Source: an uncultured Clostridia bacterium
GTDB taxonomy: Bacteria > Bacillota > Clostridia > TANB77 > CAG-508
Assembly (NCBI GenBank): GCA_934130435.1
Contig: CAKOYB010000001.1
Coordinates: 1,664 to 65,663 of the forward strand
Direction: 5' to 3'
DNA: 64,000 bases
Below, piece by piece: positions 8,117 through 33,013 of the stretch (its first letter is position 1; the number at the start of each line of letters is the position of its first letter). The notes under the pieces were generated by a model. That model did no database searches, was not told the origin of the DNA, and was given only the letters and a program-made list of their open reading frames with translations. Made by a program: the position numbers and the translations under genes.

Positions 8117-8118
8117 AA

Positions 8119-14466: not shown

Positions 14467-14640
14467 ATTTGCCCTCCAGAAACAAAATTATTCTATATAA
14501 AAACATTATTATGCAATAACAAAATATTATCATAAAAGACAAAACTTTACAATATAATTTTATTTAAATAAATTCTTAATTAGGATAATAACTCTTTAAT
14601 TGTTTTTTAATTTTATTCTATTTTTTCTTCTTTATAACAA

Positions 14641-14838: not shown

Positions 14839-15005
14839 TTTTCACCTCTTGTGCCAATTTATTTGTCAAAATGTTATCATATTACAAATTGACAAGTCAA
14901 TACTTTTGTGTTATTTTAATAAAAAATTATTTTTTATTATACTACTAGACAAAATTTATATTATTTTATATAATAATGTATATTTATAGAAAAAGAGGTA
15001 TTATT

Positions 15006-15575: not shown

Positions 15576-15661
15576 AATTATTTTTTATCAAAAATACTTG
15601 ATTTTAAAAATTTATAATAATATAATATTTATACTAAAGATGAAAATTTGAGGAGAAAAAA

Positions 15662-16123: not shown

Positions 16124-16159
16124 TAAAATAAAAAGTAATTTCTCGTATTTTTGTTAAAG

Positions 16160-16197
16160 AAAAAGAATGTCAATTGAATTTGACATTCTTTTTCTTT
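16160..16197. terminator. Bidirectional terminator between 15662..16123 and the convergent SDR gene
   Basis: AGAATGTCAA-TTGA-ATTGACATTCT hairpin followed by a T run. Confidence 0.55.
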
Positions 16198-16921
16198 ATA
16201 TATTCCAACCTCCATTAACGGAAATTATTTGCCCTGATATATATTCATCATCTATTAGCCATCTTATGCTTTTTACAATTTCCTCTGGCTCAGCTATTCT
16301 TCCTAATGGAATTTCCTTTTTTATCTCTTCTAGATCCTCTTTAGTTAAATCTTTATTCATATCTGTATTTATTAACCCTGGTGCAATTGAATTAACTCTT
16401 ATATTTGATGGTCCTAATTCTTTTGCCAGTGCTTTGGTCATTCCGTCTACAGCTGCTTTTGAAGCACTATAATGTACCTCGCATGATGCACCCATAATTC
16501 CCCAAATTGAAGAAATATTAATAATACATCCTTTTTTATTATGTATCATATTTTCTAATACTTCCTGTGTACAATAAAAAACTGAGTTTAAGTTTACATT
16601 CATCATTGTATTCCAGTCTTCTTCTGTTATATCCATAAAAGGTTTTATTTGATCTATTCCAGCATTATTTATTAATATATCTATGTTTTTAAACTTATCC
16701 AAAGTAAATTTAACTAATTTTTTTACTTCGTCCTTTTTAGAAACATCAGCTTTAAAAGTCTCTATATGAATATTATCCTCTGCTAGTTCTTTTTTAATTT
16801 CTTCTGCTGCTTCTTGTGACTTATTATAATTTAAAACAACATTATAGTTTTCCTTAGCTAATGTTCTTACTATCGCAGCTCCAATTCCTCTTGAGCCACC
16901 TGTAACAATTATTGTTTTCAT
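16196..16921 (-). CDS. SDR-family oxidoreductase (3-oxoacyl-ACP reductase FabG-like)
   Basis: TGGSRGIG Rossmann motif, NNAG, and catalytic S...YSASK. Confidence 0.8.
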   Translation of the reverse strand: MKTIIVTGGSRGIGAAIVRTLAKENYNVVLNYNKSQEAAEEIKKELAEDNIHIETFKADVSKKDEVKKLVKFTLDKFKNIDILINNAGIDQIKPFMDITEEDWNTMMNVNLNSVFYCTQEVLENMIHNKKGCIINISSIWGIMGASCEVHYSASKAAVDGMTKALAKELGPSNIRVNSIAPGLINTDMNKDLTKEDLEEIKKEIPLGRIAEPEEIVKSIRWLIDDEYISGQIISVNGGWNI

Positions 16922-17112
16922 GTGTCCTCCTTTATGAATTTGCTTAATATTTTTTATTTTTTTCCAATTATGCTCATTCTTTAAAATGAATAAAGCAATT
17001 TAAATCTCCCTTTGTTTTCGCCGATTTGAGTTTCCGAATACAATAAGGAAACCTTAAAGGCACTAGCAATTATAGCATTTTTTATATAATAGGAAACGAG
17101 AAATTTTCTAGT

Positions 17113-17158
17113 ATATAAAAAAATCAAGAATTAAGATTTCTCAAAACTCTTGATCTTT
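17113..17158 (-). terminator. Terminator downstream of the minus-strand tRNA-Lys/Glu/Thr cluster
   Basis: On the minus strand: ATCAAGAG...CTTGAT hairpin followed by TTTTTTT. Confidence 0.45.
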
Positions 17159-17234
<76 letters not shown>

Positions 17235-17244
17235 AATATGAAAT

Positions 17245-17319
17245 TGGTGACCCCTACGGGAATCGAACCCATGTCTCCGCCGTGAAAGGGCGATGTCTTA
17301 ACCGCTTGACCAAGGGGCC
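17245..17319 (-). tRNA. tRNA-Glu (anticodon TTC)
   Basis: Reverse complement GGCCCCTTGGTCAAGCGGTTAAGACA..CTTTCAC..GGTTCGATTCCC..CCA. Confidence 0.8.
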
Positions 17320-17323
17320 TCAT

Positions 17324-17399
17324 TGGTGAGCCATCGCAGACTCGAACTGCGGACAACTTGATTAAAAGTCAAGTGCTCTACCACCTGAGCTAATGGCCC
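17324..17399 (-). tRNA. tRNA-Lys (anticodon TTT)
   Basis: Reverse complement GGGCCATTAGCTCAGGTGGTAGAGC..CTTGA-CTTTTAA-TCAAG..GGTTCGAGTC..CCA. Confidence 0.8.
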
Positions 17400-17502
17400 A
17401 TGTCACCAATAATTAATAATATAAGCAGTCTTAAGTGCGACTGCCTATATATCATACTATATTTTTTCTCTCATGTCAATTGTTTTGTTAAAATTTTTAA
17501 AA

Positions 17503-17700
17503 TTATTTATTTAATTTTTCAATTATTTCATTGACATCTATTCCATGTACCATACATGCTTCTTCTATAGTTTCTGCTTGTGAAGCAGGACATCCTAAGC
17601 AGTGCATTCCTGCTTCTAATAATATTTCTGCTTTTTCTGGGCTATTTTCTAATAATTCCCCTATTGTCATATTTTTATCAATTTTCATTTTATCTTTCAA
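17503..17700 (-). CDS. DUF1858 hybrid-cluster-protein-associated redox disulfide domain protein
   Basis: 65 aa; MTIGELLENSPEKAEILLEAGMHCLGCPASQAETIEEACMVHGID matches the DUF1858/TIGR03980 pattern. Confidence 0.65.
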   Translation of the reverse strand: MKDKMKIDKNMTIGELLENSPEKAEILLEAGMHCLGCPASQAETIEEACMVHGIDVNEIIEKLNK

Positions 17701-17982
17701 ATATATTAAAAATATATTTTCTCCTTTCTAATTTTTTAATTATTTTATCATATTTTTTTAAAAAAGTATAGACAATATAAAAAATTTATTGTATTATGGT
17801 AAAAAATGTAAAAGGTGGTGATGTGTATTGATGTATTATTAGTTTTATTTTTTATCTTTTTTATTTTAAATGTTTCTATTTGTTTTTATTCAATTTATTT
17901 ATTTTTTGATATAAAAATTTTCCACAATTTGCAAGGTTCAAAATTAAATATTAAGAAAAATTCTTTATTTTAGGAGTAGTCT

Positions 17983-19710
17983 ATGTTTGTTAGTACTTTT
18001 AAGAGAAGGCTTATTTTTGTTTGTCTTTTTATGTTTTTAATCTTTTTCTTATATCTTTATTTTTTTTATTCAATTTTTTTGTCTGATAGTATAATTATTT
18101 TCTTTGCTATTCATCCATTTAATATTTGTAAAGAATACCCTAATGAATGGTTTATTTTTAAGAAATTCTTTATTATCACGGCTTTTTTCTCTAACTTAAT
18201 TATTTCAAATGTTTTATATTCAAATATTTTTAATAAGTCTTCTCAAACAAGTTATAACAATTATTCTCCATCTAATTTATCAGATTTATCATTGTATCTT
18301 GGAAATAACACTTTAAATGAACCTATATATATTCCCTCTTCTGGATTATATCAAAATATTCTTGTTACTGGAACAATAGGAACTGGCAAGACCAGCTCTG
18401 CTCTTTATCCTTTCACCCAGCAATTAATTTCATATAAATGTAATTCTTCGACTGAAAAAATTGGAATTCTTATATTGGATGTAAAGGGAAACTACTTTAA
18501 ACAAGTAAAAAAATATTGTTATGATTACAACAGAATTAATGATTTAATTATTATTGATTTAAATAATTCTACTTTTTATAATCCTCTGGATAAACCATAT
18601 TTGAAAGCATCAGTTTTAGCTAATAGATTAAAAACAATTCTTTGTTTATTTTCAAAAAACAATTCTGAATCATATTGGTTAGATAAAGCAGAGCAGGTCC
18701 TTGCTGAGTGCATTAAACTATGTAGACTTTATAATAATAACTATGTAACTTTTTTAGAAATTCATAATTTAATTACAATACCTAATTATTATTCTGATAA
18801 AGTTAAACAGCTAAGAGAACTTTTTATATCTGGAGCTTTTTCAGAAAAAGACTGTTTTAGTCTATTATCTTCCTTAAATTTTTTTGAAAAGGAATTTTCT
18901 CAATTAGATCCCCGAACATTATCTATATTAAAATCAGAAATCACTCTAATTACTAGTTGTTTTGTTTCTGATTTTGAAATAAAAAATATTTTTTGCCCAT
19001 CAAAAGAAAAAATAAATTTTCATGGATTCTCTGACTTAATAAAAAAAGGCAAAATTGTAGTTTTAAATATGAATATCTCAGAATATAAAAATTTGTCAAA
19101 AATAATAGCTGCATATTTAAAACTCGATTTTCAGTCAGAAATCTTGTCTCAACTATCTTATGGCTCAGCTAAACGAACTACAGCTTTTATAAGCGATGAG
19201 TATCAAGAGTATGTTACAGAAACTGATGCAGATTTTTTTTCTCAAAGTAGAGAAGCAAAATGTATTAACATTGTTTCTACTCAAAGCTATACTTCACTTC
19301 TTAATACTCTAAATAACAAATATGCTGTTCAAACTATTATTCAAAATCTTGTAAATAAATTATGGTTTAGAACAGATGATCTTTTTACAATTGAAGAGGC
19401 TCAAAAACAAATTGGAAAAACAGATAAACTTAAATATTCTAAAACAATTTCTGAAAACTCAAAAGAAACAAATTATAGTTTTATTGCGAAATCGTTTACT
19501 TCTGTAGATTCAAATATTTCAGAGAGCATAAATAGTTATTATAACTTTGACTACATTTATGATACTAATTTTTTTACTCAAAATTTAGAGACATTCTCAT
19601 GTCTCGGTTTTATTTCAAATGGTTCTTATATCTGCCCTCCTCAAAAAATTTCTTTAATTCCTTATTTTAAAAAAAATCTTAATTCAAATGGAGGTTACAA
19701 TGAAAAATAA
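17983..19710 (+). CDS. Type IV secretion coupling-protein-like ATPase (VirD4/TraG/TraD family)
   Basis: 575 aa. Two N-terminal TM helices, Walker A VTGTIGTGKTS, then ILILDVKGNY (the ilDpKGe motif of T4CPs). Size typical of Firmicutes T4CPs. Confidence 0.55.
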   Translation: MFVSTFKRRLIFVCLFMFLIFFLYLYFFYSIFLSDSIIIFFAIHPFNICKEYPNEWFIFKKFFIITAFFSNLIISNVLYSNIFNKSSQTSYNNYSPSNLSDLSLYLGNNTLNEPIYIPSSGLYQNILVTGTIGTGKTSSALYPFTQQLISYKCNSSTEKIGILILDVKGNYFKQVKKYCYDYNRINDLIIIDLNNSTFYNPLDKPYLKASVLANRLKTILCLFSKNNSESYWLDKAEQVLAECIKLCRLYNNNYVTFLEIHNLITIPNYYSDKVKQLRELFISGAFSEKDCFSLLSSLNFFEKEFSQLDPRTLSILKSEITLITSCFVSDFEIKNIFCPSKEKINFHGFSDLIKKGKIVVLNMNISEYKNLSKIIAAYLKLDFQSEILSQLSYGSAKRTTAFISDEYQEYVTETDADFFSQSREAKCINIVSTQSYTSLLNTLNNKYAVQTIIQNLVNKLWFRTDDLFTIEEAQKQIGKTDKLKYSKTISENSKETNYSFIAKSFTSVDSNISESINSYYNFDYIYDTNFFTQNLETFSCLGFISNGSYICPPQKISLIPYFKKNLNSNGGYNEK

Positions 19711-20023
19711 ATTAAATTTTATTTTTTTATTTTCTATTTTGTTTTTATTTTTATTCTCGCCTTTTTGTAATGCTGCATATTATCCCGATTTAGTTTCCAA
19801 ATTATTTAAAGCTTTTGAAAAGATAGAAAGTTGGTTTTTAAAGCTTTCTACTCCTGCAGCAGCTGTTGCTATATGTACTGGCGTTTTTATGAAAAAATTA
19901 AGCTTTGGAGATGAAGAAAAAATCAGAACTGGAAAAAAAATAATTCGAGGCTCAATTTTTTCATATGCTTTTATTTTATTAACAAATTTAATTCTTTCTG
20001 CTATCCAAGCCCTTTTAAAATAG
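19700..20023 (+). CDS. VirB2/TrbC-like pilin-like small membrane protein
   Basis: Signal peptide ending ...FCNA. Then hydrophobic helix, a charged loop KKLSFGDEEKIRTGKK, and a second hydrophobic helix: VirB2-like topology. Start at ATG 19700 after GGAGG; it overlaps the end of the T4CP-like gene. Confidence 0.45.
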   Translation: MKNKLNFIFLFSILFLFLFSPFCNAAYYPDLVSKLFKAFEKIESWFLKLSTPAAAVAICTGVFMKKLSFGDEEKIRTGKKIIRGSIFSYAFILLTNLILSAIQALLK

Positions 20024-20044
20024 TTCTAAAAGGAGTATTTTGTA

Positions 20045-20908
20045 TTGAATAATTCGACCACAAATTTAATTATTAATTCAATTAACACTATGCTTGAAAA
20101 AATCTTTTCCTCTGTTGATAATAATCTATACTCTGTATTAGATTATTTTGTGTTTATTGATACAGATATATTAAACGATAAATATCTTAATAAAATATTA
20201 GGTTCTAATACTTCTGGAATCCTCTTAATTTGTAATTCTTTGATTTTTGGAATATTATTATTTTTTTCAATTAAATATTTTTTCTCTCATCTTGGTATAA
20301 CAAACTCAGACCACCCAGTACAATTTATATTTAAACTAGTTGTTTTTTCAATACTAATGAATTTTTCTTTTTTTATTTGTAAAGAAATTATATATATTGT
20401 ATCTCTCATTTCTTCATCAATACGACAGATTGGTGAACGATTATTTTCATCTTCTATATGTTTTTCGAAATTAATTGAAAATCTAAATGTTATTATTTCT
20501 ACTAATACTTCTATTGATATATTTTCTTTAGATGGTTTAATAAAAAGCTTTTTATCTTTTGGTCTTTTAAGTCTTGCAATAACTTATTCTGTAAGATACG
20601 TTCTAATAAAAGTTTTTATTTTAATTTCCCCCTTTGCTTTTATTTGTTTAGTTAACACCTCTACTTCTATTTTTTTCAAGTCATGGATAAAATCCTTTCT
20701 TTCTTTATTATTAGAGCAGGTTTTTATTGCTATAGTTTTAACTTTTATTTTTTCTTTAAATTTTTCATCTTCACAACTCACTTCAAAATTTATTCTAGTT
20801 GGATCAATTCTTGTTTTGTCAAAGGCTAATCATTTCGTTCGAGAACTACTAGGAGGAATTGGAACAGATATTGGGTTAAATTTTTCAAGTATAAAAAAAA
20901 CATTTTAG
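20045..20908 (+). CDS. VirB6/TrbL-like polytopic membrane protein
   Basis: 287 aa with about 6 TM helices. TTG start with AGGAG 9 nt upstream. Position and topology fit VirB6-like; sequence similarity not verifiable here. Confidence 0.4.
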   Translation: MNNSTTNLIINSINTMLEKIFSSVDNNLYSVLDYFVFIDTDILNDKYLNKILGSNTSGILLICNSLIFGILLFFSIKYFFSHLGITNSDHPVQFIFKLVVFSILMNFSFFICKEIIYIVSLISSSIRQIGERLFSSSICFSKLIENLNVIISTNTSIDIFSLDGLIKSFLSFGLLSLAITYSVRYVLIKVFILISPFAFICLVNTSTSIFFKSWIKSFLSLLLEQVFIAIVLTFIFSLNFSSSQLTSKFILVGSILVLSKANHFVRELLGGIGTDIGLNFSSIKKTF

Positions 20909-20920
20909 GTAGGTGATTTT

Positions 20921-21205
20921 TTGAAATTTATTTTTCCTCAAAACTACAATTTTAATAATAAATTTTTGGGTATTATGGATTACTCAACACTAATATTAAA
21001 TATTATTTTTTATCTTTTTATTTTTTGTATTTCAAATTTATTATTTAAAAATATTAATTTAAAAATATTTTTTTGTATTTCTTTTTCTCTTCCTTTATTA
21101 ATACTTAGCTTAACTGGTATAAATAATGAAAATATTTTTCTTGTTTTTATATATTTAATATCTTATATTAAAAGACCTAAAATATATTTATTTAAAAAAT
21201 TTTAA
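20921..21205 (+). CDS. Small 2-TM membrane protein (possible VirB3-like)
   Basis: 94 aa. TTG start with AGGTGA RBS. In G+ T4SS the VirB3-like gene usually sits directly 5' of virB4. Confidence 0.3.
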   Translation: MKFIFPQNYNFNNKFLGIMDYSTLILNIIFYLFIFCISNLLFKNINLKIFFCISFSLPLLILSLTGINNENIFLVFIYLISYIKRPKIYLFKKF

Positions 21206-21278
21206 TTTGTTTTCATTGTATTCATTATTAAAAAATGTTATAATTTAGTCATATTGTTATTTAAGTGGGTGAATTATA

Positions 21279-22241
21279 ATGAAGTTAGAACAAAATGACA
21301 TGCCATTGCTTTTTTCTAGCACCGAAATCCCTGATATATTTTTTACCGAATACTTTTCTGGGGCATCAGGTGATTTTATAAAAGTGTATTTATATATATT
21401 ATTTCTTTCAAAATATAATAAGGATATAAAATTAAATGATTTATCAAAGAAAATCGCAATTACTCTTCCAGTTATTCAGGAAGCTCTTTCTTTCTGGGAA
21501 CAACAAGGAATTATTACTAAAAAGGGTTCTGGTTATATTGTAAATAATCTAAATGAAATTGAACTACATAAGCTATATTCACCAAAACTTTCAATTTCAG
21601 ATAAAACAACTGCAAAAACTGAAAAAGAAAAACTTCGTTCAAAAGCAATAGAATCTATTAATACTATGTTTTTTCAAGGAATTATGTCACCTTCTTGGTA
21701 TAGTGATATAGATTTATGGTTTAAGAAATATGAATTTGATGAAGAAGTAATGATTGCATTATTCAGATATTGTTTTGAAAAATCTGCTCTTCACAGAAAT
21801 TATGTAAAAGCTGTTGCAGATGCGTGGCACTTAAACAATATAAAAACTTTTTCTGAGTTAGATTCCTACTATGAAAAACAGGAAAAAATTAATAAAATAA
21901 AAAAGAGTATATCTAAGAAATTAGGTCTAACAAGAAAACTAACTCAATACGAAGAAGCTTACATAGAAAAATGGATCTCTGAATATAAATATAATCTTGA
22001 TGTAATAGAAATAGCCTTGAAAAAAACAACATCAAAATCTAATCCTAATTTTGATTACTTAGATAAAATGATTTCAGATTGGTATGACAAAAAACTTTTA
22101 AACTCAGATGATGTAAAAAAATATTTATTAGAATTTAAAAATAAATCTAAGCAAATTAAGGAATTAGAAAAAAAGACTAATTATCAAAATTATGATCAAA
22201 GAAATATTACAAACTTTGATGATTTATATGCAAACAATTAG
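21279..22241 (+). CDS. DnaD-domain replication initiation/membrane attachment protein
   Basis: 320 aa with a DnaD-like winged-helix N-terminus and C-terminal DDBH2 region (WYSDIDLWF..., YIEKWISEY, DYLDKMISDWYDKKL). Confidence 0.7.
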   Translation: MKLEQNDMPLLFSSTEIPDIFFTEYFSGASGDFIKVYLYILFLSKYNKDIKLNDLSKKIAITLPVIQEALSFWEQQGIITKKGSGYIVNNLNEIELHKLYSPKLSISDKTTAKTEKEKLRSKAIESINTMFFQGIMSPSWYSDIDLWFKKYEFDEEVMIALFRYCFEKSALHRNYVKAVADAWHLNNIKTFSELDSYYEKQEKINKIKKSISKKLGLTRKLTQYEEAYIEKWISEYKYNLDVIEIALKKTTSKSNPNFDYLDKMISDWYDKKLLNSDDVKKYLLEFKNKSKQIKELEKKTNYQNYDQRNITNFDDLYANN

Positions 22242-22261
22242 ACTAAAATGGAGGTTTTAAT

Positions 22262-23251
22262 TTGAATAATTCTACTTTAAAAGCATTGTTAAAAGAATAT
22301 GAACAATCTCGTTTAGAAAAAGAATTATTATTAGAAAAAAAATTAAATGATTTTTATGAAAATAATCCTGATGTAAGTTCTATTATTGAAAAAATAAATA
22401 GAACTTCAATTGAAATCTCTAAAAATATTCTTTTAAACAAAGATCCCAAAAAACAAAAGGAATTAGAATTAATTTTAGAAAAATATAAGAAGGAAAAACA
22501 ACTGTTATTAAAAAAGTTAAATATATCTGATGATTTTTTTCTTCCTGATTATTCTTGTAAATTATGTAATGATACTGGATATCTAGTTAACAATAGCACT
22601 ATTATGTGTAGTTGTTTAAAACAAAAATTATTAAATATCGAGTATAATAGATCCAACATTTCTAGTTTGGAAAAAGAAAATTTTAACACGTTTGATTTTA
22701 GTGTTTTCTCTAATAATGCAGATGAAAAAAAATATAATTCAAATATTTCTCCTAGAGAAAATATCAAAAAAATAAGAAAAATTTGTGAAGACTTTATACA
22801 AAACTTTAATAATCCCAAAGAAAAAAATTTACTTTTTACAGGCAATACTGGACTTGGAAAAACATTTTTAACAAACTGCATTGCAAATGAATTACTAAAA
22901 TCCGGTAAAACAGTATTATATCAAACTTCCCCTGTAATGCTTGACTCTATACTTGATTATAGATTTGGAAAAAATAATAATTTTAATTATTCCGATTTAT
23001 TATCTGTCGATTTGTTAATAATAGATGATTTAGGAACTGAAAGTTTAAATAATATGAAATTTTCAGAGTTATTTAATATTCTAAATACTAGGCTTTTAAA
23101 TCAAAATCATCATATAACAAAAACTATAATTTCAACAAATTTAAGCTTAAATAATTTATTCAAGACATATGATGAAAGAATTTTTTCAAGACTCGCTGGA
23201 TATTATAATATTTGCAAGTTTTTTGGTGATGATATACGTTTAAAAAAATAA
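22262..23251 (+). CDS. Helicase loader, DnaC/DnaI (IstB-like AAA+) family
   Basis: Zn-binding cysteines (CKLCNDTGY...CSC), Walker A FTGNTGLGKTFL, Walker B LLIIDDLGTE. Confidence 0.75.
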   Translation: MNNSTLKALLKEYEQSRLEKELLLEKKLNDFYENNPDVSSIIEKINRTSIEISKNILLNKDPKKQKELELILEKYKKEKQLLLKKLNISDDFFLPDYSCKLCNDTGYLVNNSTIMCSCLKQKLLNIEYNRSNISSLEKENFNTFDFSVFSNNADEKKYNSNISPRENIKKIRKICEDFIQNFNNPKEKNLLFTGNTGLGKTFLTNCIANELLKSGKTVLYQTSPVMLDSILDYRFGKNNNFNYSDLLSVDLLIIDDLGTESLNNMKFSELFNILNTRLLNQNHHITKTIISTNLSLNNLFKTYDERIFSRLAGYYNICKFFGDDIRLKK

Positions 23252-23266
23252 TACTTTTTAATAAAA

Positions 23267-23296
23267 TAAAAGAGAGGTCAATCCTCTCTTTTATTT
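23267..23296. terminator. Bidirectional terminator between dnaC-like and convergent gyrA
   Basis: AAAGAGAGG-TCAAT-CCTCTCTTT hairpin with flanking T runs. Confidence 0.5.
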
Positions 23297-23308
23297 TGTT
23301 CTTTTTTG

Positions 23309-25744
23309 CTATTCTTCAATATCTGGTGTAATTGTTTCTATACTTACAACTTTACAATTATCACTTGTTCTCATTAATGTAACTCCTTGCGTTGATCTTC
23401 CTAAAATACTTATATCTTTAACCTTCAACCTAATTATTGTTCCTGTATTTGTTATAAGCATAACATCTTCTTCGTCTGTTGCTATTCTTATTCCAACAAT
23501 TTTTCCGGTTTTAGGTGTAATTTTATATGTAATAACTCCTTTACCACCTCTTGTTTGAACTCTGTATTCATCTAATTCTGTTCTTTTTCCAAATCCATTT
23601 TCTGTTATAGCAAGAAGAGTAGCTTTGCTTCCTGAAATTATAGGTTCCATTCCAATGACTTCATCTCCATCATTTATCTTCATTCCTATAACTCCTTGTC
23701 CTGTTCTTCCTATTGGTCTTACGTCCTTTTCTGCAAATGTAATACATAATCCCTCTCTTGTTACTAGCACAACGTTATCTTCTCCATCTGTCATTCTTAC
23801 ATCTATCAACTCATCTCCATTTTTTAGAGTTATTGCTTGAAGTCCAGATTTTCTTGCTGAGTTATATTCTAATAATGCTGTCTTTTTTATCATTCCTGTT
23901 TTCGTAGCCATTAAAAGATATTTTCCTTCTGCAAAATTTGAAATCGGTATAACAGCTGAAATTTTTTCATCTCTATCTAATTGTAATAAATTAACTATGG
24001 CTGTTCCTTTGGCTGTCCTTCCAGCCTCAGGTATTTCATATCCTCTTAATCTGTAAAGTTTTCCTTTATTAGTAAAGAATAAAATTGTATCATGTGTAGA
24101 AGCAGTAAATATTTGCTTTACAAAGTCTTCTTCTCTTGTTGCAATTCCTGTTATTCCTTTTCCTCCTCTTCTTTGACTCTTATATGTGTCTATTGGCATT
24201 CTCTTAACATATCCAAAATGAGTTAATGCAATAACAGCTTGTTCTTCTTTTATTAGGTCTTCTATTTCAAAATCTCCTTCTGCTGCAACTATTTTTGTTT
24301 TTCTTTCGTCTCCAAATTTTTCTTTTACTTCAATTAGTTCTTTTTTTATAATATCAAAAACTAATTTTTCACTTCCTAGAACATCTTTTAAATATGCAAT
24401 TAACTTCATTAATTCTTCATATTCGTTTTCAATTTTTTCTCTTTGTAAGCCTGATAATGTTTTTAATCTCATATCAAGAATTGATTGGGCCTGAATTTCA
24501 GATAGTCCAAATCTTTGCATTAATCTTTCTTTTGCATCATCATATGAGTTCTTTATTATTTCAATAACTTCATCTATATTATCTAGAGCTATTTTTAATC
24601 CTTCTAAGATATGTGCCCTTGCTTCTGCCTTATCTAGGTCAAATTTTGTTCTTCTTAAAACAACTTCTTTTCTATGTTCAATATAATATTCCATACATTG
24701 TTTTAATGTTAATATTCTAGGTTCACCATTTACTAATGCAAGCATTATAATTCCAAATGTATCTTGCATTTGAGTATGTTTAAATAGTAAATTTAGTACA
24801 ACTTGTGCATTTGCATCTCTTTTTAGTTCAATTACTATTCTAACTTTCTCTTTTCTATCAGATTCATCTCTAATTTCTGAAATTCCTTCTATTTTCTTTT
24901 CTTTTGCTAGTTCAGAAATATTTTGAATTAATTTTGCTTTATTAACTTGGTATGGTAAAGATGAAACTATAATACGTTGTTTGTTTCCAGACATTTCTTC
25001 TATTTCTGTTTCAGCTCTTAATGTTATTTTTCCTTTTCCAGTTGTATACGCTTGTTTTATTCCTTCTCTTCCTAATATTAGTGCTCCTGTTGGGAAATCT
25101 GGTCCCTTTACAATTTTCATTAAATCTTCATCACTAATATCATCTTCATCGATAATTTTTATTATTCCATCTATAACCTCTGTTAAGTTATGTGGTGGAA
25201 TATTAGTTGCCATTCCAACTGCTATTCCAGATGAACCATTTATAAGAAGTGCCGGTATTTGAGCTGGTAAAACAGTTGGTTCTTGTAGTCTATCATCATA
25301 GTTTGGCATAAAATTTACGGTATTTTTTTCAATATCAGCCAACATGTAGTTTGATATTTTAGCCATTCTTGCTTCTGTATACCTCATTGCAGCAGCACCA
25401 TCACCATCTATTGATCCAAAATTTCCATGTCCATCAATTAGCATATATCTAAGAGAAAAGTCTTGTGCCATTCTAACCATTGCATCATATACAGCCGCAT
25501 CGCCGTGTGGATGATATCTTCCTAAAACTGAACCTACTGTATTTGCACATTTCCTGTATGGCTTATCTGATGTTATTCCATCTTCATGCATTGCATATAA
25601 TATTCTTCTATGTACTGGTTTTAATCCGTCTCTAACATCTGGTAATGCACGTGAAACTATAACACTCATAGCATAATCTATATATGCAGTCTTCATTTCT
25701 TTTTCAATGTCTCTTTCAATTATTGTTTCTCCTGGTCTGTCCAT
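23309..25744 (-). CDS. gyrA: DNA gyrase subunit A
   Basis: 811 aa; active-site region AMRYTEARM, GyrA box QRRGGKG. Full length. Confidence 0.95.
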   Translation of the reverse strand: MDRPGETIIERDIEKEMKTAYIDYAMSVIVSRALPDVRDGLKPVHRRILYAMHEDGITSDKPYRKCANTVGSVLGRYHPHGDAAVYDAMVRMAQDFSLRYMLIDGHGNFGSIDGDGAAAMRYTEARMAKISNYMLADIEKNTVNFMPNYDDRLQEPTVLPAQIPALLINGSSGIAVGMATNIPPHNLTEVIDGIIKIIDEDDISDEDLMKIVKGPDFPTGALILGREGIKQAYTTGKGKITLRAETEIEEMSGNKQRIIVSSLPYQVNKAKLIQNISELAKEKKIEGISEIRDESDRKEKVRIVIELKRDANAQVVLNLLFKHTQMQDTFGIIMLALVNGEPRILTLKQCMEYYIEHRKEVVLRRTKFDLDKAEARAHILEGLKIALDNIDEVIEIIKNSYDDAKERLMQRFGLSEIQAQSILDMRLKTLSGLQREKIENEYEELMKLIAYLKDVLGSEKLVFDIIKKELIEVKEKFGDERKTKIVAAEGDFEIEDLIKEEQAVIALTHFGYVKRMPIDTYKSQRRGGKGITGIATREEDFVKQIFTASTHDTILFFTNKGKLYRLRGYEIPEAGRTAKGTAIVNLLQLDRDEKISAVIPISNFAEGKYLLMATKTGMIKKTALLEYNSARKSGLQAITLKNGDELIDVRMTDGEDNVVLVTREGLCITFAEKDVRPIGRTGQGVIGMKINDGDEVIGMEPIISGSKATLLAITENGFGKRTELDEYRVQTRGGKGVITYKITPKTGKIVGIRIATDEEDVMLITNTGTIIRLKVKDISILGRSTQGVTLMRTSDNCKVVSIETITPDIEE

Positions 25745-25883
25745 TATAAAATAACCTCTTTTCTTTGCATTTTAAAGTACTTAAAATGCTTGTTTCCTTA
25801 CGGATTTATTATACTAAACCTTCCAAAAATATGCAAGAAAAAAAATACAAAAAAGCCAAAAAACCTTCTAATTTGCGACAAAC

Positions 25884-25914
25884 TTGACATAAACTTTTTT
25901 TTATGAGGTATAAT
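25884..25914 (+). promoter_or_regulatory. Putative sigma-A promoter (TTGACA-19-TATAAT) divergent from gyrA
   Basis: TTGACA 25884-25889, TATAAT 25909-25914. The 19-nt spacer is suboptimal. Confidence 0.3.
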
Positions 25915-25958
25915 AATTATAGATAATTTTAAAAATTATTTTATTTAAGGAGGCAATT

Positions 25959-26189
25959 GATGTCTTAGAACAGATAAATAAACAGAATCGTGAAAAAAAT
26001 ATAGACCAAACTTTTACATGTAACTATCAAGGTTGCATTGATATTGATAAACATCCATTGTTTTTTAAAACTGCTGAAAGAACAGAATATACAAAAGCCG
26101 ATGGAAGTTCTGCTGAAACTCTGGGTAATAATTCAATTATCTTTGATCCAAGCAATATCTTAAATGATCCAGACGAAATTGGAAGATAA
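25959..26189 (+). pseudogene. Start-less 76-codon ORF after a strong RBS and a 2-codon mini-ORF (probable gene remnant or leader)
   Basis: AAGGAGG(25947-25953) then TTG ATG TCT TAG. An overlapping +2 frame stays open for 76 codons with no ATG/GTG/TTG near its 5' end. Confidence 0.3.
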
Positions 26190-26201
26190 AATTAAATAAA
26201 A

Positions 26202-26239
26202 AAGCCGCTAACATTATTTCATTAAAGCGGTTTTTTTTT
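26202..26239 (+). terminator. Terminator-like hairpin with a T9 tract
   Basis: AAAGCCGC...GCGGTTTTTTTTT. Confidence 0.45.
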
Positions 26240-26316
26240 ATTATTTAATTAGTTAAAATTTTATAAGAACTTCTTTTTTCCTTCTTAATTTCATACAGTT
26301 TCATTTTTATAGTTTT

Positions 26317-27042
26317 TTATACCAAAATTTGTGCTAATTGTTTTTCTTCTTCTGATAAATTATAATTAATTCCTTTATTTTTTATTAATTTATGTATGTT
26401 TTCTATTTGTTTTGCTTCTTTAATTGTACTTTCTAATGGTATTATATCTTCTATTTCTGTTTTTATTTTTTTATATTCTCTTTCCATACCTTCCATGTCT
26501 TTTGCTGAATAACAGTTTTTCCAGTTGGAAATATATTTAGTTGTTTTTTCAATTGAATTAACTTGTCCCAAAAATTTATCTTCTATATTACTTTCAATTG
26601 TATTTAATATTGCATTCTTTCCTTTTTTTATTAATGTTGCTGTTCCCTTTTTCATTAGTTTGTTTTTGGCCGCATTGTTTACAACATTATTAATAACATC
26701 TGATACATTATCTATTATTCCACCTTTTTTAATTGCTGTTTGTACTTGGGATAAATTATCAAATTTTCCAGTAACAATTCCTAGTGCACTTTTTCCTAAA
26801 TCAATAGCTGAATTTATTGCAACATTTATCCCTTCTTTAAGCCCACTTGTTAACATAGTATTTTTTATGTTGATTATTTGGTCGTCAATTAATTTTGGAA
26901 AAATTGCCCTCAATCCAATATCTATGCCGGTATTAATTATTTTTCCAAATGTTGTTTCTAAAAAATTCTTTTGACTCTTCTCTGTTACTAATTCATTAGT
27001 TAATGTTCTAATTTCATTATTATTCTCTAACTTATTTTGCAT
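26317..27042 (-). CDS. Hypothetical soluble helical protein (241 aa), last gene of the gyrB-gyrA island
   Basis: No TM helix or signal peptide. Repetitive amphipathic N/K/I-rich helices. No recognisable motif. Confidence 0.5.
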   Translation of the reverse strand: MQNKLENNNEIRTLTNELVTEKSQKNFLETTFGKIINTGIDIGLRAIFPKLIDDQIINIKNTMLTSGLKEGINVAINSAIDLGKSALGIVTGKFDNLSQVQTAIKKGGIIDNVSDVINNVVNNAAKNKLMKKGTATLIKKGKNAILNTIESNIEDKFLGQVNSIEKTTKYISNWKNCYSAKDMEGMEREYKKIKTEIEDIIPLESTIKEAKQIENIHKLIKNKGINYNLSEEEKQLAQILV

Positions 27043-27098
27043 TATTATTATTTTGTAAAATACTTTTCTTTAAAATATTTTACATCCTCCTTTATTTT

Positions 27099-28109
27099 TT
27101 ATAGTAATATTTCATTTTTTATAATACTAATAAATTTTCTTTTTTCTTTTTTATTTAAAAAATTTATATTAACTTTATTATCTATTATTAAATTTATATT
27201 TGAAATAAAATCAATTTTTTCAATTTTACTTCTTAAATTTAAGGTTTTTTCTAGAATATTTTTACTTAATGCATTTTTATTATATTTGTTTAATATTATT
27301 TTTATATTATTTTTATTTTTTATTTTATTTATTATTTTATTTAATTCTAATAAATTATTTTCTATTATAAATATTTCTATATTCGCTTTTTTGAAAAAAT
27401 TTTCTTTATTAAAATCAAATAATAAATAATCATACTTTTCTTTTAAAGTTTTTATTTTATTATTTATATTTATTTTTTCTTCTTTACATTCTTTAATGTT
27501 TATTATACTTAAATTTTTATTTATTAAATTAAAAGATTTAATTCCTTTATTTGGTAAATAAATTTTTGTTATTGAATTACTCCATTCATCTCCATCTATT
27601 ATTAAAACTTTCTTACCAAATTTTTTAATCAATAATTCAGTAATTATAATTGAAAAAAATGTTTTTCCACTCCCTCTATTTCCAAATATTCTAATTGTTT
27701 TATTTTTTTGTTTTTTATTTAATATTTTAATTTTTTCATTAATTGTTTTTGAATTTGTTTTTTTTATTTTTATATAGGTTATATTATTTTGATTTATTAT
27801 TTTTTGATTTTTTTCATTAATATTTAAAATAAAAATAATTATTTTTATTTTATTATTTATTGTTCTTATTTTTTTTATTAGATTAATTAAACTAATATTT
27901 CCTATTAAACTTTCATTTAAAAATATTAAATCAACATTTTTGTCTTTTTCTAATATTTCAATTATTCCTTCTTTATATTGAATGTCTGAATTAATTATTT
28001 TTATTTTATTAATTTTTTTTATTTCATTTAATATTTTTGTATTATTAACAGCTGTTATTGTATTTATATTTTTTTCTTTATATAATTGTTCTTCTTTCAA
28101 ATTCATCAC
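27099..28109 (-). CDS. ParA/MinD/CpaE-like P-loop ATPase with N-terminal receiver-like domain
   Basis: 336 aa. N-terminal half resembles a pseudo-receiver (DLIFLNESL). C-terminal half has IFGNRGSGKTFFS...KKVLIIDGDEW, the ParA/MinD/TadZ arrangement. Overlaps the upstream ORF by 32 nt. Confidence 0.5.
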   Translation of the reverse strand: MMNLKEEQLYKEKNINTITAVNNTKILNEIKKINKIKIINSDIQYKEGIIEILEKDKNVDLIFLNESLIGNISLINLIKKIRTINNKIKIIIFILNINEKNQKIINQNNITYIKIKKTNSKTINEKIKILNKKQKNKTIRIFGNRGSGKTFFSIIITELLIKKFGKKVLIIDGDEWSNSITKIYLPNKGIKSFNLINKNLSIINIKECKEEKININNKIKTLKEKYDYLLFDFNKENFFKKANIEIFIIENNLLELNKIINKIKNKNNIKIILNKYNKNALSKNILEKTLNLRSKIEKIDFISNINLIIDNKVNINFLNKKEKRKFISIIKNEILL

Positions 28110-29907
28110 TTTCTATATTTACTAAAATATGATTTTCTCCAACAAACATTAAACATTCACCTCTTTTAAGAGTTTTTATTTCGATTTTTTCTTTTTCTGA
28201 AAGTGAAGAAAATTTACTTAATATTTTTATGTTATCCTCTTCTAATGAAAAAAAAGTTTTAATTTCCGAATTATTTAATATACTTTTTCCATAAACTCCA
28301 TTTTCCAGGCTAAAAATATCTGAAATATCTTGCGTAATAGCAACCGCACTTCCTCCATATTTTCTAATTGTTTTAAAAATCTTATAAATAAAACTTGCAA
28401 CTATTTTATTTGATGTTATTCCAATTAGTCTCCACACTTCGTCTAAATATATAGCTTTTTTTATCTTTCTATTATTTTTAATTTTATCCCAAAATAATTC
28501 TGTAAAGATATACATTCCATATTTTAAATTTTCTTCTCCTAAGTCATAAACATCTGCAACAATTAAACTATTATTTAATTCTACATTTGTATAATTATTA
28601 AAAAATTTTAAGGAACCTTTTATAAATGGTTTTAATTTTATTGCAAATATTTTTGTTTTATTATCATTATTTAAAACATTATATAAATCACTTAGAATTG
28701 GCATATCTTTTCTAGTTTTAAATATATATTTATTTTTTTCTTTTTTATATAAAGATTTATCTTCGAAATTTATATTTTTTAATTCATAACATTTAATAAT
28801 TTTTTCTTCTAAAATTCCTCTTTCCTCTTCATTTATTTCTCCAAAAATCAAATTAAAAAATCCAATTAATTTTAATATTTTTGTTTCTAAATATCCTTTT
28901 CCTTGTTCTTCTAAGCTTTCTTTTCTAATGTCTAAAATATTTATATATGTTTCAGAATTTGGTCCTATTTTTATTAATGTTCCATTTAAATTGGTACAAA
29001 GTTTTGTATATTCTCTTTCTGGATCTATAATAAATTGTTCTATTCCATTTAGTCTACTTCTTAATATTAATAATTTTGTAAAAAAAGATTTTCCAGCTCC
29101 ACTTGTTCCAAAAATACATATATTAGAGTTTTTATATTTTTTATCATTATATCTATCAATAAAAACAAGTGAATTATTATATATATTATTTCCTATATAT
29201 ATTCCTTCATCATCAAATATAGCAGATGATATAAATGGATATGTTGCACACATTCCAGATGTAAGCACATTTCTTTTTGCTGCATTTTTTATTTCTATGC
29301 TATTTTCTAGAAATGGCATTGTCGCTAAAAAAACTTGTTCTTGTCTAAAATATGCTTTTTTTGAATATAAACCTGAACTTTGCAAAATATTTTCTATTTT
29401 ATTTAAAATAAAATTTATTTCTTCCTTTTTTTGAGTAAATATATCTATATAAATATATAAATAAAATAATTCTTGATTATTTATTTGAATTTCTTTCCTC
29501 AAATATTTTGCATCACTATACGTAAATGCTGCAATTTCAATGTCTTGTCTATTTTCTGATGTTTCTTTTATTTGAGCACCAACATTTCCAATGTGATATG
29601 TTAAATCTTTTATTGCTTTTTGTGTATTTGCTTTCTCATAAAAAATTGAAATATTCATATTAATATTACTGTCTATCAATTTTTTTAATATAATATCTTC
29701 TTGTTCTCTGTTATAGTTATATATAATTAATCCAGAATAATACATTTCGTCTAATTCTAAATATTTTGGATTTTCTAAATTTAAATAGTTTGGGCAAATT
29801 TTATCTTTAAAACTAATTGCCCCTTCATATATATCAATTTTATTTTTAGGTTCTTTTTTTATTTTTAAAATTATTTTCTTTATTATTTTATTAATTATTT
29901 TCTTCAT
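28078..29907 (-). CDS. VirB4/ConE/TrsE-like T4SS ATPase, C-terminal 609-aa part
   Basis: Walker A CIFGTSGAGKSFF, IIDPEREY, Walker B AIYLDEVWRL, VAITQDISD. Upstream region has the NPKYLELDEMYYSGLIIYNY pattern of G+ VirB4 proteins. Confidence 0.65.
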   Translation of the reverse strand: MKKIINKIIKKIILKIKKEPKNKIDIYEGAISFKDKICPNYLNLENPKYLELDEMYYSGLIIYNYNREQEDIILKKLIDSNINMNISIFYEKANTQKAIKDLTYHIGNVGAQIKETSENRQDIEIAAFTYSDAKYLRKEIQINNQELFYLYIYIDIFTQKKEEINFILNKIENILQSSGLYSKKAYFRQEQVFLATMPFLENSIEIKNAAKRNVLTSGMCATYPFISSAIFDDEGIYIGNNIYNNSLVFIDRYNDKKYKNSNICIFGTSGAGKSFFTKLLILRSRLNGIEQFIIDPEREYTKLCTNLNGTLIKIGPNSETYINILDIRKESLEEQGKGYLETKILKLIGFFNLIFGEINEEERGILEEKIIKCYELKNINFEDKSLYKKEKNKYIFKTRKDMPILSDLYNVLNNDNKTKIFAIKLKPFIKGSLKFFNNYTNVELNNSLIVADVYDLGEENLKYGMYIFTELFWDKIKNNRKIKKAIYLDEVWRLIGITSNKIVASFIYKIFKTIRKYGGSAVAITQDISDIFSLENGVYGKSILNNSEIKTFFSLEEDNIKILSKFSSLSEKEKIEIKTLKRGECLMFVGENHILVNIESDEFERRTII

Positions 29908-29918
29908 ATTTATTCCTT

Positions 29919-30476
29919 TTAAAAAATTTTTCTATTAATAAATGAATTATATATTTTTTTAATTTCATCTATTTTTTGAATTTTTATAATAGAGTTTCCA
30001 CATCTGCTTAATGAATCTTTTATTTTTAAGAATTTTTCATTTAAGTCTTCTCTTATTTCATTAATTTTTTTTTCATCCTCTATCTCTGATTTTATTAATA
30101 AATAAAATTTTTTTAATGTGGATTTTTTTTCTATATTTTTTTGATTAATAAAATTAATATAATTATCTATCAGGTTTACTATATTTAAATTATTTAAACC
30201 CATTTCCTTTTCTTTTTGAAAATTTACATTTTTAATTATTTTGTTTAAATCTTCTTTATTGCTTTGAATTATAATTTGTGTTTCTCTACTACAATTTTTT
30301 AAAAAGATTTTATATGAGTTTAATATTGCTTGTTTTTCAAATTCTGTTTTTAAATTATAATTAATTGGATTTACTTTTATTATTATAAAAAATATATTAT
30401 TTTTTACTTTAATAATTCCATCACAAAAAAACTGCTCTATTGGCAACCATTCTTGAATACTATTATTTTTTTTCAT
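29919..30476 (-). CDS. VirB4/ConE-like N-terminal fragment (185 aa)
   Basis: SIQEWLPIEQFFCDGIIKVKNN...VNPINYNLKTEFEKQAILNSYKIFLKN matches the conserved N-terminus of G+ VirB4 homologues (Tn916 Orf16, ConE, TcpF). The stop lies 11 nt before the ATG of the C-part, in a different frame. RBS AGGAGA upstream. Confidence 0.55.
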   Translation of the reverse strand: MKKNNSIQEWLPIEQFFCDGIIKVKNNIFFIIIKVNPINYNLKTEFEKQAILNSYKIFLKNCSRETQIIIQSNKEDLNKIIKNVNFQKEKEMGLNNLNIVNLIDNYINFINQKNIEKKSTLKKFYLLIKSEIEDEKKINEIREDLNEKFLKIKDSLSRCGNSIIKIQKIDEIKKIYNSFINRKIF

Positions 30477-30565
30477 TTTTCTCCTTGGAAATTAATTGAT
30501 TAAACTTTTTTGATAAAATTAATTAAAATAAGAATTAAATTAAATATTGATCTAATAATAAATTT

Positions 30566-30593
30566 ATTATATATAAAATATCATTTTTGTCAA
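30566..30593 (-). promoter_or_regulatory. Putative sigma-A promoter for the island operon
   Basis: On the minus strand: TTGACA (complement of 30588-30593), 16 nt spacer, TATAAT (complement of 30566-30571). About 90 nt upstream of the 30476 ATG. Confidence 0.4.
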
Positions 30594-31042
30594 CAAAAAT
30601 AATATTTCAATTTTCGACAAAAAATTTTTTTTAATTTTTTATTTTTTTTGTATATATTTTTTTAGTTTGTGCATAATATTAGTATAAGGTTAATACTAGT
30701 TAAACAAAGAAAAGTATGAGATTAAGGTTTTGTATTTTTCGAACCAAGATTTATTATGGTGGTGTATTTTTATCATAATAAGTCGGAAGTACGAGTATAA
30801 TATGTGTTTGTATGCTGTTGTATATGGCTAAATTATATGTATTATATTCAAGTTAAGAGTATACTTATATTTTAGTCTATTATTTCTAGTCCCTCTGGGA
30901 TGACTATAGTTGGCTGAGGTGTATTTATATTCGAGTGACTGATTATTAAAGGTGGAAAATTGCTTAGTTGTGCAGCAATGTACATTAGGTGAGTATTTAT
31001 CTTTAATGGTTTTAACTACGATTAATATTAGCCTTATAGATA

Positions 31043-31069
31043 ATAGCCCGAGATCCTGTCTCGGGCTAT
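31043..31069 (-). terminator. GC-rich hairpin immediately downstream of gyrB
   Basis: AGCCCGAGA-TCCTG-TCTCGGGCT. An unusually GC-rich perfect 9-bp stem in an AT-rich genome; the trailing U tract is weak. Confidence 0.45.
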
Positions 31070-31072
31070 TAA

Positions 31073-33013
<1,941 letters not shown>

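Follow-up and report, generated by a model that had tools for sequence, protein, structure and literature searches.

A likely relaxase-less type IV secretion system interleaved with gyrA, dnaD and dnaC beside the replication origin of uncultured gut Clostridia

Here we analyse a 64-kb stretch of DNA (referred to as the window) from an uncultured Clostridia bacterium, in which nine genes related to type IV secretion systems (T4SSs) lie in two blocks on opposite strands, 6-19 kb from the chromosomal replication origin (oriC) and with gyrA, a dnaD-like and a dnaC-like gene in between. Gene identities, conservation, selection, the history of the synteny and the presence of mobility genes were computed, and from these results we infer how the machine would assemble, which substrates it might carry and what physiological role it could have. 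An earlier, sequence-only reading of the window regarded the blocks as one conjugation operon that a rearrangement had broken. We will argue that the nine genes are likely to constitute one ancient, relaxase-less T4SS of the monoderm (MPF-FATA-like) kind, encoded in the chromosome beside oriC and vertically inherited in uncultured, AT-rich, small-genome gut Clostridia.

The window has a GC content of about 25%, and its gene content is that of a Firmicute chromosome origin region, with dnaN-recF-gyrB to the left of dnaA and yidC-jag-mnmE-mnmG-rsmG-soj-spo0J to the right. The proximity to oriC claimed in the sequence-only reading is borne out by three markers that agree with each other, namely dnaA itself, a cluster of perfect DnaA boxes that surrounds dnaA only, and a minimum of the cumulative GC skew at about 36 kb. 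All genes named in that reading are found where it had placed them (Table 1).

Block 1, on the plus strand, consists of a small membrane open reading frame (ORF), a VirD4-type coupling protein (T4CP), a VirB2-like pilin, a VirB6-like protein and a VirB3/PrgI-like protein. The small ORF, of 50 aa, is the ninth conserved gene and is added here to the previously listed ones; tblastn finds it on the same strand and immediately 5' of the T4CP gene in 13 loci and in an outgroup, L091 (L numbers denote loci of related genomes). The T4CP has an N-terminal transmembrane segment and conserved Walker A (GTIGTGKT) and Walker B (..DE..) motifs. The other three components are recognised better in their orthologues than in the window itself. 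For the pilin, 33/34 orthologues match PF18895 and 12/34 match PF04956 (TrbC/VirB2), while the window copy scores 25.2 bits against PF18895, just under the cutoff. For the VirB6-like and VirB3-like proteins, 11/34 and 8/34 orthologues match PF04610 (TrbL/VirB6) and PF12666 (PrgI), respectively, with both window copies below threshold. A VirB6 profile built from the clade matches the genes at the VirB6 position in L081, L082 and L087; the same family profile gave no significant match against PDB sequences. The VirB3-like gene does end block 1, as had been noted, and its homologue lies immediately 5' of VirB4 in L081 and L082, where the N-terminal motif FIFPQNY..K..G..DY is shared.

Block 2, on the minus strand, has a GC content of only 16-20% and contains a TrsD-like ORF, a VirB4 ATPase, a TadZ/CpaE-like ATPase and a 241-aa protein (called x241). 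What had been taken for a single virB4 gene (30476-28078) is in fact two ORFs in different frames, of 185 and 609 aa. This split is kept in all relatives, and there are thousands of VirB4 homologues of 560-625 aa, so that it does not represent a frameshift. The TrsD-like ORF is separate in all relatives and carries PF26593 in the outgroups; in L082 it is fused to VirB4. The VirB4 ATPase matches NF045971 with 312 bits, just missing the equivalog cutoff of 325, as well as PF19044 (E 5e-22) and the structure 4AG5 (E 2.4e-38); its Walker A motif is identical in 78/79 orthologues and its Walker B motif is conserved.

The 336-aa gene that follows had been called ParA-like. It does encode a MinD/ParA-type ATPase domain, but the protein is of the TadZ/CpaE type, and the Soj/Spo0J pair of the chromosome lies elsewhere. 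In the consensus of the clade, the N-domain is receiver-like and a G..GVGKS motif is present, and a profile of the clade matches the gene after VirB4 in L081, L088, L089, L090 and L092 (E 7e-36 to 3e-66). It probably acts in assembly or positioning. The last gene of the block, x241, gave no match in Pfam or in the PDB, also when its family profile was compared with PDB sequences; an AlphaFold2 calculation on a 38-sequence alignment returned an all-helical model that is unreliable (mean predicted local distance difference test score, pLDDT, 49.7). Between x241 and gyrA there is an ORF of 77 codons that would start with ATT (25956-26189, plus strand); it was dropped from consideration, as its sequence is not conserved.

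Table 1. Positions of the features in the window, and of the composite VirB4-Tad operons in related loci. dN/dS, the ratio of non-synonymous to synonymous substitution rates, is by Nei-Gojobori on the closest pairs; values for gyrA, gyrB, dnaA and recF serve for comparison.
Feature	Positions	Strand	dN/dS	Remarks
VanW/G5/peptidoglycan-binding protein	12634-14466			adjoins block 1 region; family distinct from VirB1/VirB8
Single-pass membrane ORF, 50 aa	17821-17973	+		first gene of block 1; ribosome-binding site and start codon; directly 5' of T4CP
VirD4/TrwB-type coupling ATPase (T4CP)	17983-19710	+	0.275	PF10412 E 4.5e-9, 36 bits, above gathering score; also PF12696
VirB2/TrbC-like pilin, 111 aa	19688-20023	+	0.23	signal peptide; two hydrophobic helices flanking a charged loop
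VirB6/TrbL-like polytopic protein, 287 aa	20045-20908	+	0.18	at least 4 transmembrane segments
VirB3/PrgI-like protein, 94 aa	20921-21205	+	0.155	two transmembrane segments; last gene of block 1
Extended -10 promoter 5' of dnaD-like	21217-21243			sequence consensus
dnaD-like	21279-22241	+		DnaB_2, E 4e-28
dnaC-like	22262-23251	+		PRK06835, 336 bits
Terminator-like hairpin, 18-bp stem	23260-23300			between convergent dnaC-like and gyrA; right-hand junction of the invertible segment
gyrA	23309-25744	-	0.03	separates the T4SS halves in every lineage examined
Terminator-like hairpin 3' of x241	~26200-26233			
x241, soluble all-helical protein, 241 aa	26317-27042	-	0.145	last gene of block 2; 1603 homologues
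TadZ/CpaE-like protein, 336 aa	27099-28109	-	0.45	CbiA E 8.6e-8; pseudo-receiver and MinD/ParA-type ATPase; least constrained of the set
VirB4 ATPase, 609 aa	28078-29907	-	0.07	C-terminal two thirds of canonical VirB4
TrsD/TraC-like protein, 185 aa	29919-30476	-	0.135	NF041427 and NF045971 N-terminus; VirB4 N-terminal domain as its own gene
Block-2 promoter, TTGACA-16-TATAAT	30593-30566 (with motif 30566-30619)	-		12/12 consensus matches
Direct repeats TGTCGAA(N5-6)TGTCGAAC	30596-30625	-		directly 5' of the block-2 -35; kept in most of 24 species
Candidate structured non-coding RNA	core 30684-31037; terminator hairpin 31043-31071	+		divergent from block 2, towards gyrB
gyrB	31073-33004	-	0.03	dnaA-dnaN-recF-gyrB run precedes block 2 in all relatives
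recF			0.10	
dnaA	35578-36927	-	0.075	origin marker gene
DnaA boxes, perfect matches	36958-37076			
soj/spo0J pair of the chromosome	43764-45426			
Composite VirB4-Tad operon, L081	2352-9795			
Composite VirB4-Tad operon, L088	2277-7085			
Composite VirB4-Tad operon, L089	9460-15969			
Composite VirB4-Tad operon, L090	9439-15980			
Composite VirB4-Tad operon, L092	10001-16119			

The VirB4 ATPase served as query in a scan for relatives in which each GTDB species was represented by a single genome. Of 212 confirmed relatives 80 were kept (L001-L080), and the view of each locus extends 10 kb to either side of the anchor gene. The VirB4 proteins of these 80 are 66-72% identical, and the genomes are all uncultured Clostridia or Clostridium sp. 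metagenome-assembled genomes (MAGs) from human, rabbit, chicken, mouse and ruminant guts; one of them is circular, with 1.57 Mb. The nearest relatives of VirB4 by sequence include Clostridia/Clostridiales MAGs and chromosomal contexts like that of the window. The order and orientation of the window, i.e. dnaA-dnaN-recF-gyrB-TrsD-VirB4-TadZ-x241-gyrA and then, on the other strand, dnaC-dnaD-VirB3-VirB6-pilin-T4CP, recur in 46 species-level loci. A second search was anchored on gyrB (at least 84% identity) instead of VirB4, using metagenome contigs with at least 1.5 kb downstream of gyrB, and TrsD/VirB4 was found downstream of gyrB in 49/49 loci. No locus of sufficient length has one block without the other, and L091 likewise has both.

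The T4SS genes follow the history of the chromosome. Their pairwise protein distances correlate with those of concatenated GyrB-GyrA-DnaN-RecF-DnaA (r 0.72-0.90), and VirB4 is more conserved than DnaA or RecF (mean distance 0.26 vs 0.34). The ORFs are intact across species at a synonymous divergence of about 0.5-1, and the dN/dS values are well below 1 (Table 1). The T4SS genes are thus vertically inherited and under purifying selection. The suggestion of the sequence-only reading that the system is domesticated is supported by these data and by its clade-wide presence, whereas a decaying integrative and conjugative element (ICE), which had been offered as the other option, is rejected in view of the intact ORFs and the low dN/dS.

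It is important to point out that the T4SS genes are interleaved with gyrB, gyrA, dnaD and dnaC near oriC, and could in principle have been retained by hitch-hiking between these essential genes without any function of their own. We find this hardly credible: linkage does not shield a gene from point mutations, yet the reading frames have stayed open over the synonymous divergence given above, dN/dS goes down to 0.07, the catalytic motifs are invariant, and the promoter of block 2 is conserved in 24/24 species. The interleaving is not needed for explaining the retention, since the proteins themselves are constrained.

We now consider how the arrangement arose. The earlier proposal that the blocks complement each other as halves of a single T4SS is supported by the fact that no component is duplicated and by contiguous versions in two distant loci. 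L081 (VirB4 49% identical, 40% GC) has a contiguous VirB6-x-VirB3-TrsD-VirB4-TadZ-...-T2SSE cluster, and L082 (VirB4 44% identical, with the TrsD part fused) is a relaxase-bearing element with VirB3-VirB4-pilin-T4CP-M23-VirB6. These clusters indicate that the blocks are parts of one ancestral machine. In the model that follows from the sequence-only reading, the contiguous operon of an ICE integrated near oriC was broken by an inversion of 21279-30476, or by a two-step insertion, which trapped dnaD, dnaC and gyrA and left a remnant that is decaying or hard to delete. The position of the VirB3-like gene in L081 and L082, the opposite strands of the two blocks in the window and the very low GC content of block 2 would all fit such a break.

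The outgroup L091 (GyrA 68%, GyrB 67% and VirB4 50% identical to the window) speaks for a different history. Its order is dnaA-dnaN-recF-gyrB, two metabolic genes, TrsD-VirB4, a TadZ fragment, an 83-aa ORF, x241 and gyrA, and it continues with one G5-domain gene on the opposite strand, the small ORF and T4CP-pilin-VirB6-VirB3-dnaD. All nine T4SS genes are represented and co-directional, and only gyrA and the G5-domain gene lie between the two halves. The presence of gyrA between the halves, and of dnaD after VirB3, are therefore old features, and the split of the T4SS around gyrA is ancient. An inversion of 21279-30476 would furthermore have broken the same-strand collinearity of gyrB and gyrA, which is kept. 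Inverted or direct repeats were searched for at 21.2-21.3 and 30.5-31.0 kb, the proposed breakpoints, as well as at about 12.6 and 23.3 kb, and only AT-rich chance matches (at most 16 nt, or about 70% complementary) were found. A recent break is also contradicted by the identical layout in 46 species, and decay or mobility by the intact genes (dN/dS 0.07-0.45) and by the lack of any integrase, relaxase or att-like repeat in the window. The low GC content of block 2 was rejected as a mark of recent acquisition because the genes are vertically inherited. The broken-ICE scenario is, in our judgement, very improbable.

Since L091 is co-directional throughout, the layout of the window is instead explained by the inversion of a segment of about 10.7 kb reaching from the VanW-like gene to dnaC (~12.6-23.3 kb), by which dnaD and dnaC would have come to lie between the blocks. 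Within the clade, this segment (~12634-23251, including tRNAs, block 1 and dnaD-dnaC) occurs in both orientations relative to gyrA. L048, L055 and L074 are co-directional over a stretch that begins with the VanW-like gene and reaches the start of block 1 or further, and partial evidence points the same way for L057; the contigs of these four loci end before dnaC. In a neighbour-joining tree the co-directional loci are nested among window-type loci, whereas the outgroup is co-directional, and the segment has probably been inverted more than once. The dnaD-dnaC-like helicase-loading genes follow VirB3 throughout the clade, as dnaD does in L091.

In other outgroups of the clade, VirB4 is joined into TadZ-TadA-TadB/C clusters. 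The block-2 unit of L089, L090 and L092 reads TrsD-VirB4-TadZ-TadA(T2SSE)-TadB/C(T2SSF)-x241, adjoining gyrB in L089 and gyrA in L092, whereas L081 and L088 have TadZ and a T2SSE-type ATPase gene after VirB4, the T2SSF-like gene or genes being seen in L089, L090 and L092. A homologue of x241 closes the cluster in L089, L090 and L092 and adjoins gyrA in L091 and L092, which makes x241 the last gene of an ancestral VirB4-Tad composite operon; x241 would then be an accessory factor inherited from it. With the T2SSE and T2SSF proteins of L089 and L090 as tblastn queries, no such genes were detected in the window, nor in the 80 clade loci over 10 kb to either side of VirB4; the window's clade has lost TadA and TadB/C from the T4SS locus. 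We found no description of such a T4SS-Tad hybrid in the literature searched. Two further observations on these loci concern their surroundings. In L086, L089 and L090, an spmA/spmB pair lies directly 5' of TrsD-VirB4. In L085 (2385-2555) and L092 (7503-7673), a 56-aa ORF matching the RecF N-terminus lies 5' of VirB4; dnaA-recF-gyrB are no longer adjacent there, and the ORF may be a relic of a former origin-proximal neighbourhood.

The composite operons raise the possibility that the two blocks are functionally separate, block 2 being an accessory module of a Tad/Flp-type pilus and block 1 an independent remnant. VirB4 is followed by Tad genes in the five loci just described, x241 closes three of the clusters, no block-1 genes are present within 10 kb in L089 and L090, and a conserved Tad pilus cluster has been described across the order TANB77 (PMC11680825). 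On the other hand, the two blocks occur together wherever a locus is long enough, L091 included, L081 and L082 mix genes of both in one cluster, only one VirB4 was seen, and the block-1 genes are under purifying selection. We know of no function for VirB3- and VirB6-like proteins without VirB4, which also counts against a separation. At the locus itself, only the TadZ-like gene and x241 remain of a Tad/Flp pilus. A functional separation of the blocks is in our view improbable.

The transcription signals, assessed by consensus matches and conservation, predict expression of the T4SS genes as two units. The -35 hexamer of the block-2 promoter is invariant in all the species compared (24/24). Having its own consensus promoter and a terminator-like hairpin, block 2 is predicted to form a transcription unit of its own, separate from gyrB and gyrA. 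A hairpin is also found 3' of gyrB, and gyrA and dnaD each have a promoter-like site. We detected no terminator between VirB3 and the dnaD-like gene, and block 1 may read through into dnaD-dnaC. The TGTCGAA direct repeats may constitute an operator. Unpaired stretches of the RNA described next contain recurring copies of a related motif, TTCGA(G/A)C.

The 597-bp spacer between gyrB and TrsD contains a candidate structured RNA with a core of about 355 nt. Nucleotide identity in this region is 66-73% across species, while synonymous sites are near saturation. On the plus strand, i.e. opposite to the flanking genes, RNAalifold predicts 11 helices with 128 pairs, 78 of which show compensatory changes. 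In this fold 97.2% of the cells are paired, compared with 84.7 ± 0.4% for column shuffles and 37-43% for slid partners, and the covariation score is 0.405, compared with 0.169 for the shuffles and ca 0.07 for the slid partners. The copy in the window has a folding energy of -135.8 kcal/mol with z = -9.3, whereas z is -2.9 for the minus strand, and the many invariant G-U pairs imply a strand-specific RNA structure. A conserved plus-strand -35/-10 pair, read by eye in the alignment, and a hairpin at the gyrB stop codon bracket an RNA of ~355-390 nt.

Using nhmmer, exactly one copy of the RNA was found in 113/160 clade loci, in the gyrB-TrsD spacer wherever the position was examined, and no copy in the outgroups; a subclade whose gyrB-TrsD spacer is short apparently lacks it. 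Searches of Rfam gave only tRNAs, both for the whole window at gathering thresholds and for 30400-31150 at E values up to 1. There is no cluster of DnaA boxes in the spacer. From its sequence, the element is a large and strongly covarying RNA candidate, apparently without a described family.

Mobility genes were sought among window ORFs of at least 100 aa outside larger genes by comparison with Pfam and NCBIfam. No relaxase, integrase or att-like repeats were found in the window, and no relaxase in the flanks of ~170 related loci as judged from called genes, Pfam labels and homology to window proteins. L082, in contrast, carries Relaxase and MobC. The hallmarks of a plasmid or an ICE, that is, a relaxase with its origin of transfer (oriT), an integrase, flanking repeats and a patchy distribution, are not seen, and the system therefore does not move itself. 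Among plasmid homologues, identity does not exceed 33% for VirB4 and 29% for the T4CP. The same comparison of window ORFs with Pfam and NCBIfam gave neither a VirB1-like cell-wall hydrolase nor a VirB8-like protein within the blocks or close to them.

A functional conjugation system, either a fixed ICE or one that mobilises the chromosome, could nevertheless have its relaxase and oriT elsewhere, with chromosomal transfer starting near oriC. The coupling protein is kept with intact ATPase motifs, the genes for relaxases and T4CPs are frequently distant from virB4 (PMC12102498), the ComEA, MecA and RadC homologues in the window show that DNA-handling functions are present, and a conserved structured element adjoins block 2. 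This element, however, folds strand-specifically as RNA and with many G-U pairs, which is a misfit for a DNA oriT. The strictly vertical inheritance at a fixed position and the lack of a relaxase in the window or in the ~170 sets of flanks argue in the same direction, and we regard conjugation as unlikely. As to the three homologues, MecA (5922-6440, plus strand), RadC (4707-5393, minus) and ComEA (57073-57741, minus) indicate that the organism has at least a partial conventional competence and DNA-receptor toolkit besides the T4SS.

Coming back to a chromosomal, host-serving T4SS, the following components of a monoderm MPF-FATA system are present: a VirB4-family ATPase, VirB3/PrgI-like and VirB6-like proteins and a VirD4-type coupling protein. 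The closest described system is the chromosomal, origin-proximal and relaxase-less T4SS of Patescibacteria, which is derived from MPF-FATA, has TrsD and VirB4, PrgI, VirB6 and PF18895 pilins, and is often encoded near dnaA/dnaN (Quinonero-Coronel et al. 2025, PMC12102498). According to Wang et al. (2023), as cited in PMC12102498 and PMC12857230, several of its components are essential for epibiotic growth of Ca. Southlakia epibionticum. The window system shares with it the chromosomal location near dnaA/dnaN, the absence of a relaxase, the largely vertical inheritance, the MPF-FATA-like set with a separate TrsD-like gene and VirB4, the PrgI/VirB3-like and VirB6-like proteins, the pilin detected by PF18895 and the small-genome uncultured host. 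It differs in that the host belongs to the Clostridia, that there is a single pilin gene instead of an array, that the T4CP is linked to the locus, that a TadZ-like ATPase and x241 are included, and that the halves straddle gyrA and abut dnaD and dnaC.

Other systems resemble it in part. In the Trs system of pGO1/pSK41 and the Tra system of pIP501, both MPF-FATA of the TrsD/TrsE type, the VirB4 N-domain is likewise a protein of its own (TrsD/TraD, NF041427), encoded ahead of the VirB4 ATPase, and a PrgI/TrsC-like VirB3 and a T4CP are also shared. Unlike the window system, these two reside on plasmids and include a relaxase, an oriT, VirB8-like proteins and a hydrolase of the VirB1 type, and they lack a VirB2-like pilin. 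Archaeal Ced, which works together with a type IV pilus, and Helicobacter ComB are also conjugation-derived, chromosomal and relaxase-less systems with a host function (cf. PMC12102498), but their component sets differ and they are without the T4CP that is present here. In TANB77, a Tad-type cluster with CpaB-TadZ-CpaE-TadA-TadBC and pilins has been reported, and no T4SS (PMC11680825; bioRxiv 10.1101/2022.02.09.479829); there is no mention of VirB, T4SS or conjugation in Kim et al. (2024, PMC11680825). Like the present locus, the cluster comprises envelope-machine genes, a TadZ/CpaE-like one among them, that are conserved across uncultured small-genome gut Clostridia; unlike it, it contains the T2SSE and T2SSF genes missing here. 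Our literature searches found no description of this T4SS locus.

The following scheme can be proposed. The VirB3/PrgI-like and VirB6-like proteins, the split VirB4 (TrsD-like subunit and ATPase) and the VirD4-type ATPase would form a membrane translocon. The VirB2-like pilin would be exported via Sec and assembled on the translocon platform into a conjugative-type pilus or conduit, and the TadZ-like ATPase would position or nucleate the machine. By analogy with the Patescibacteria, a role serving the host cell is most likely, namely contact-dependent interaction or macromolecule exchange with neighbouring cells. The options include adhesion or a pilus function, export of DNA or protein through the coupling protein, and uptake.

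Several points weigh against the interpretation as one complete, host-serving T4SS. The assignments of VirB3, VirB6 and the window copy of the pilin are based on weak profile matches together with gene position. In L089 and L090, VirB4 sits with Tad genes and block-1 genes are absent within 10 kb, and VirB4 might serve a Tad-type pilus rather than, or besides, a T4SS channel. The clade resembles, and may belong to, the GTDB order TANB77 (uncultured, reduced genomes, classified by NCBI as Clostridiales), an order that has been linked to immunotherapy response. The TadZ-like protein is only weakly constrained and is shorter here (336 aa) than in relatives (~400 aa). Given that VirB1 and VirB8 were not found, the apparatus may be incomplete or may use unlinked genes, and a relaxase could be encoded elsewhere in the genome, our view being 64 kb here and 10-kb flanks in the relatives. 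Finally, in contig L117 the TrsD is truncated and capsule genes come after it, which is either a chimeric assembly or a real loss. In this contig, the first ~78 TrsD residues are fused to a glycosyltransferase, and a Wza/Wzc-type polysaccharide cluster replaces VirB4 through gyrA (3427-12541), with only a slight rise in GC.

The remaining neighbours in the window are mainly housekeeping genes: a VanW-like protein, an XRE-S24 repressor, a carbohydrate-binding module (CBM) protein, a FabG-like short-chain dehydrogenase/reductase (SDR), tRNAs, mreBCD, PBP2, alr, a Mur ligase, leuS and dinB. The repressor (14976-15575, plus strand), an XRE-HTH and Peptidase_S24 protein of the autocleavable CI/LexA-like type, lies 2.4 kb 5' of block 1; it was not detected at the matching place in the co-directional loci, which makes a link to the T4SS doubtful. 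An SpmA/SpmB-like pair of two Gate-domain proteins (8559-9669, minus) and a GerM-like (Germane) protein (11998-12561, minus) suggest a sporulation heritage. Patches with a GC content of only 18-19% occur at an ATP-grasp protein (47174-48418, plus) and in an intergenic or unknown region (51000-53000), and two ORFs of 495 and 248 aa (52663-54150 and 6471-7217, both minus) have no match in Pfam or NCBIfam.

Chromosomal T4SSs that have been exapted are already known; what is unexpected here is the host group, together with the apparently undescribed RNA that adjoins the system. A relaxase-less, origin-proximal and pilin-bearing T4SS is fixed in dozens of uncultured gut Clostridia species at the least, and probably in hundreds, and such loci should not be annotated as ICEs. 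They also mean that a secretion module has separated gyrB from gyrA over a very long period. That VirB4 evolves more slowly than DnaA points to a conjugation-derived machine with a core role in the cell, here in a second group of uncultured bacteria with small genomes that is unrelated to the Patescibacteria, and the fixation offers a concrete hypothesis for the lifestyle of the clade and its resistance to cultivation. A bolder version, which we advance only tentatively and consider rather unlikely, is that the clade depends on this pilus-forming T4SS for partner-cell exchange as a core, near-essential function, and that the system is the Firmicutes counterpart, possibly a relative or the donor lineage, of the essential T4SS of Patescibacteria. 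In this version, a Tad pilus may be a working partner of the system. According to a review of December 2025, Patescibacteria are the only monoderms with VirB2-like pilins in a T4SS needed for growth (PMC12857230). If the bolder version is true, it would help to explain why the clade resists cultivation, and would overturn the view that VirB2-type pili are, among monoderms, unique to Patescibacteria.

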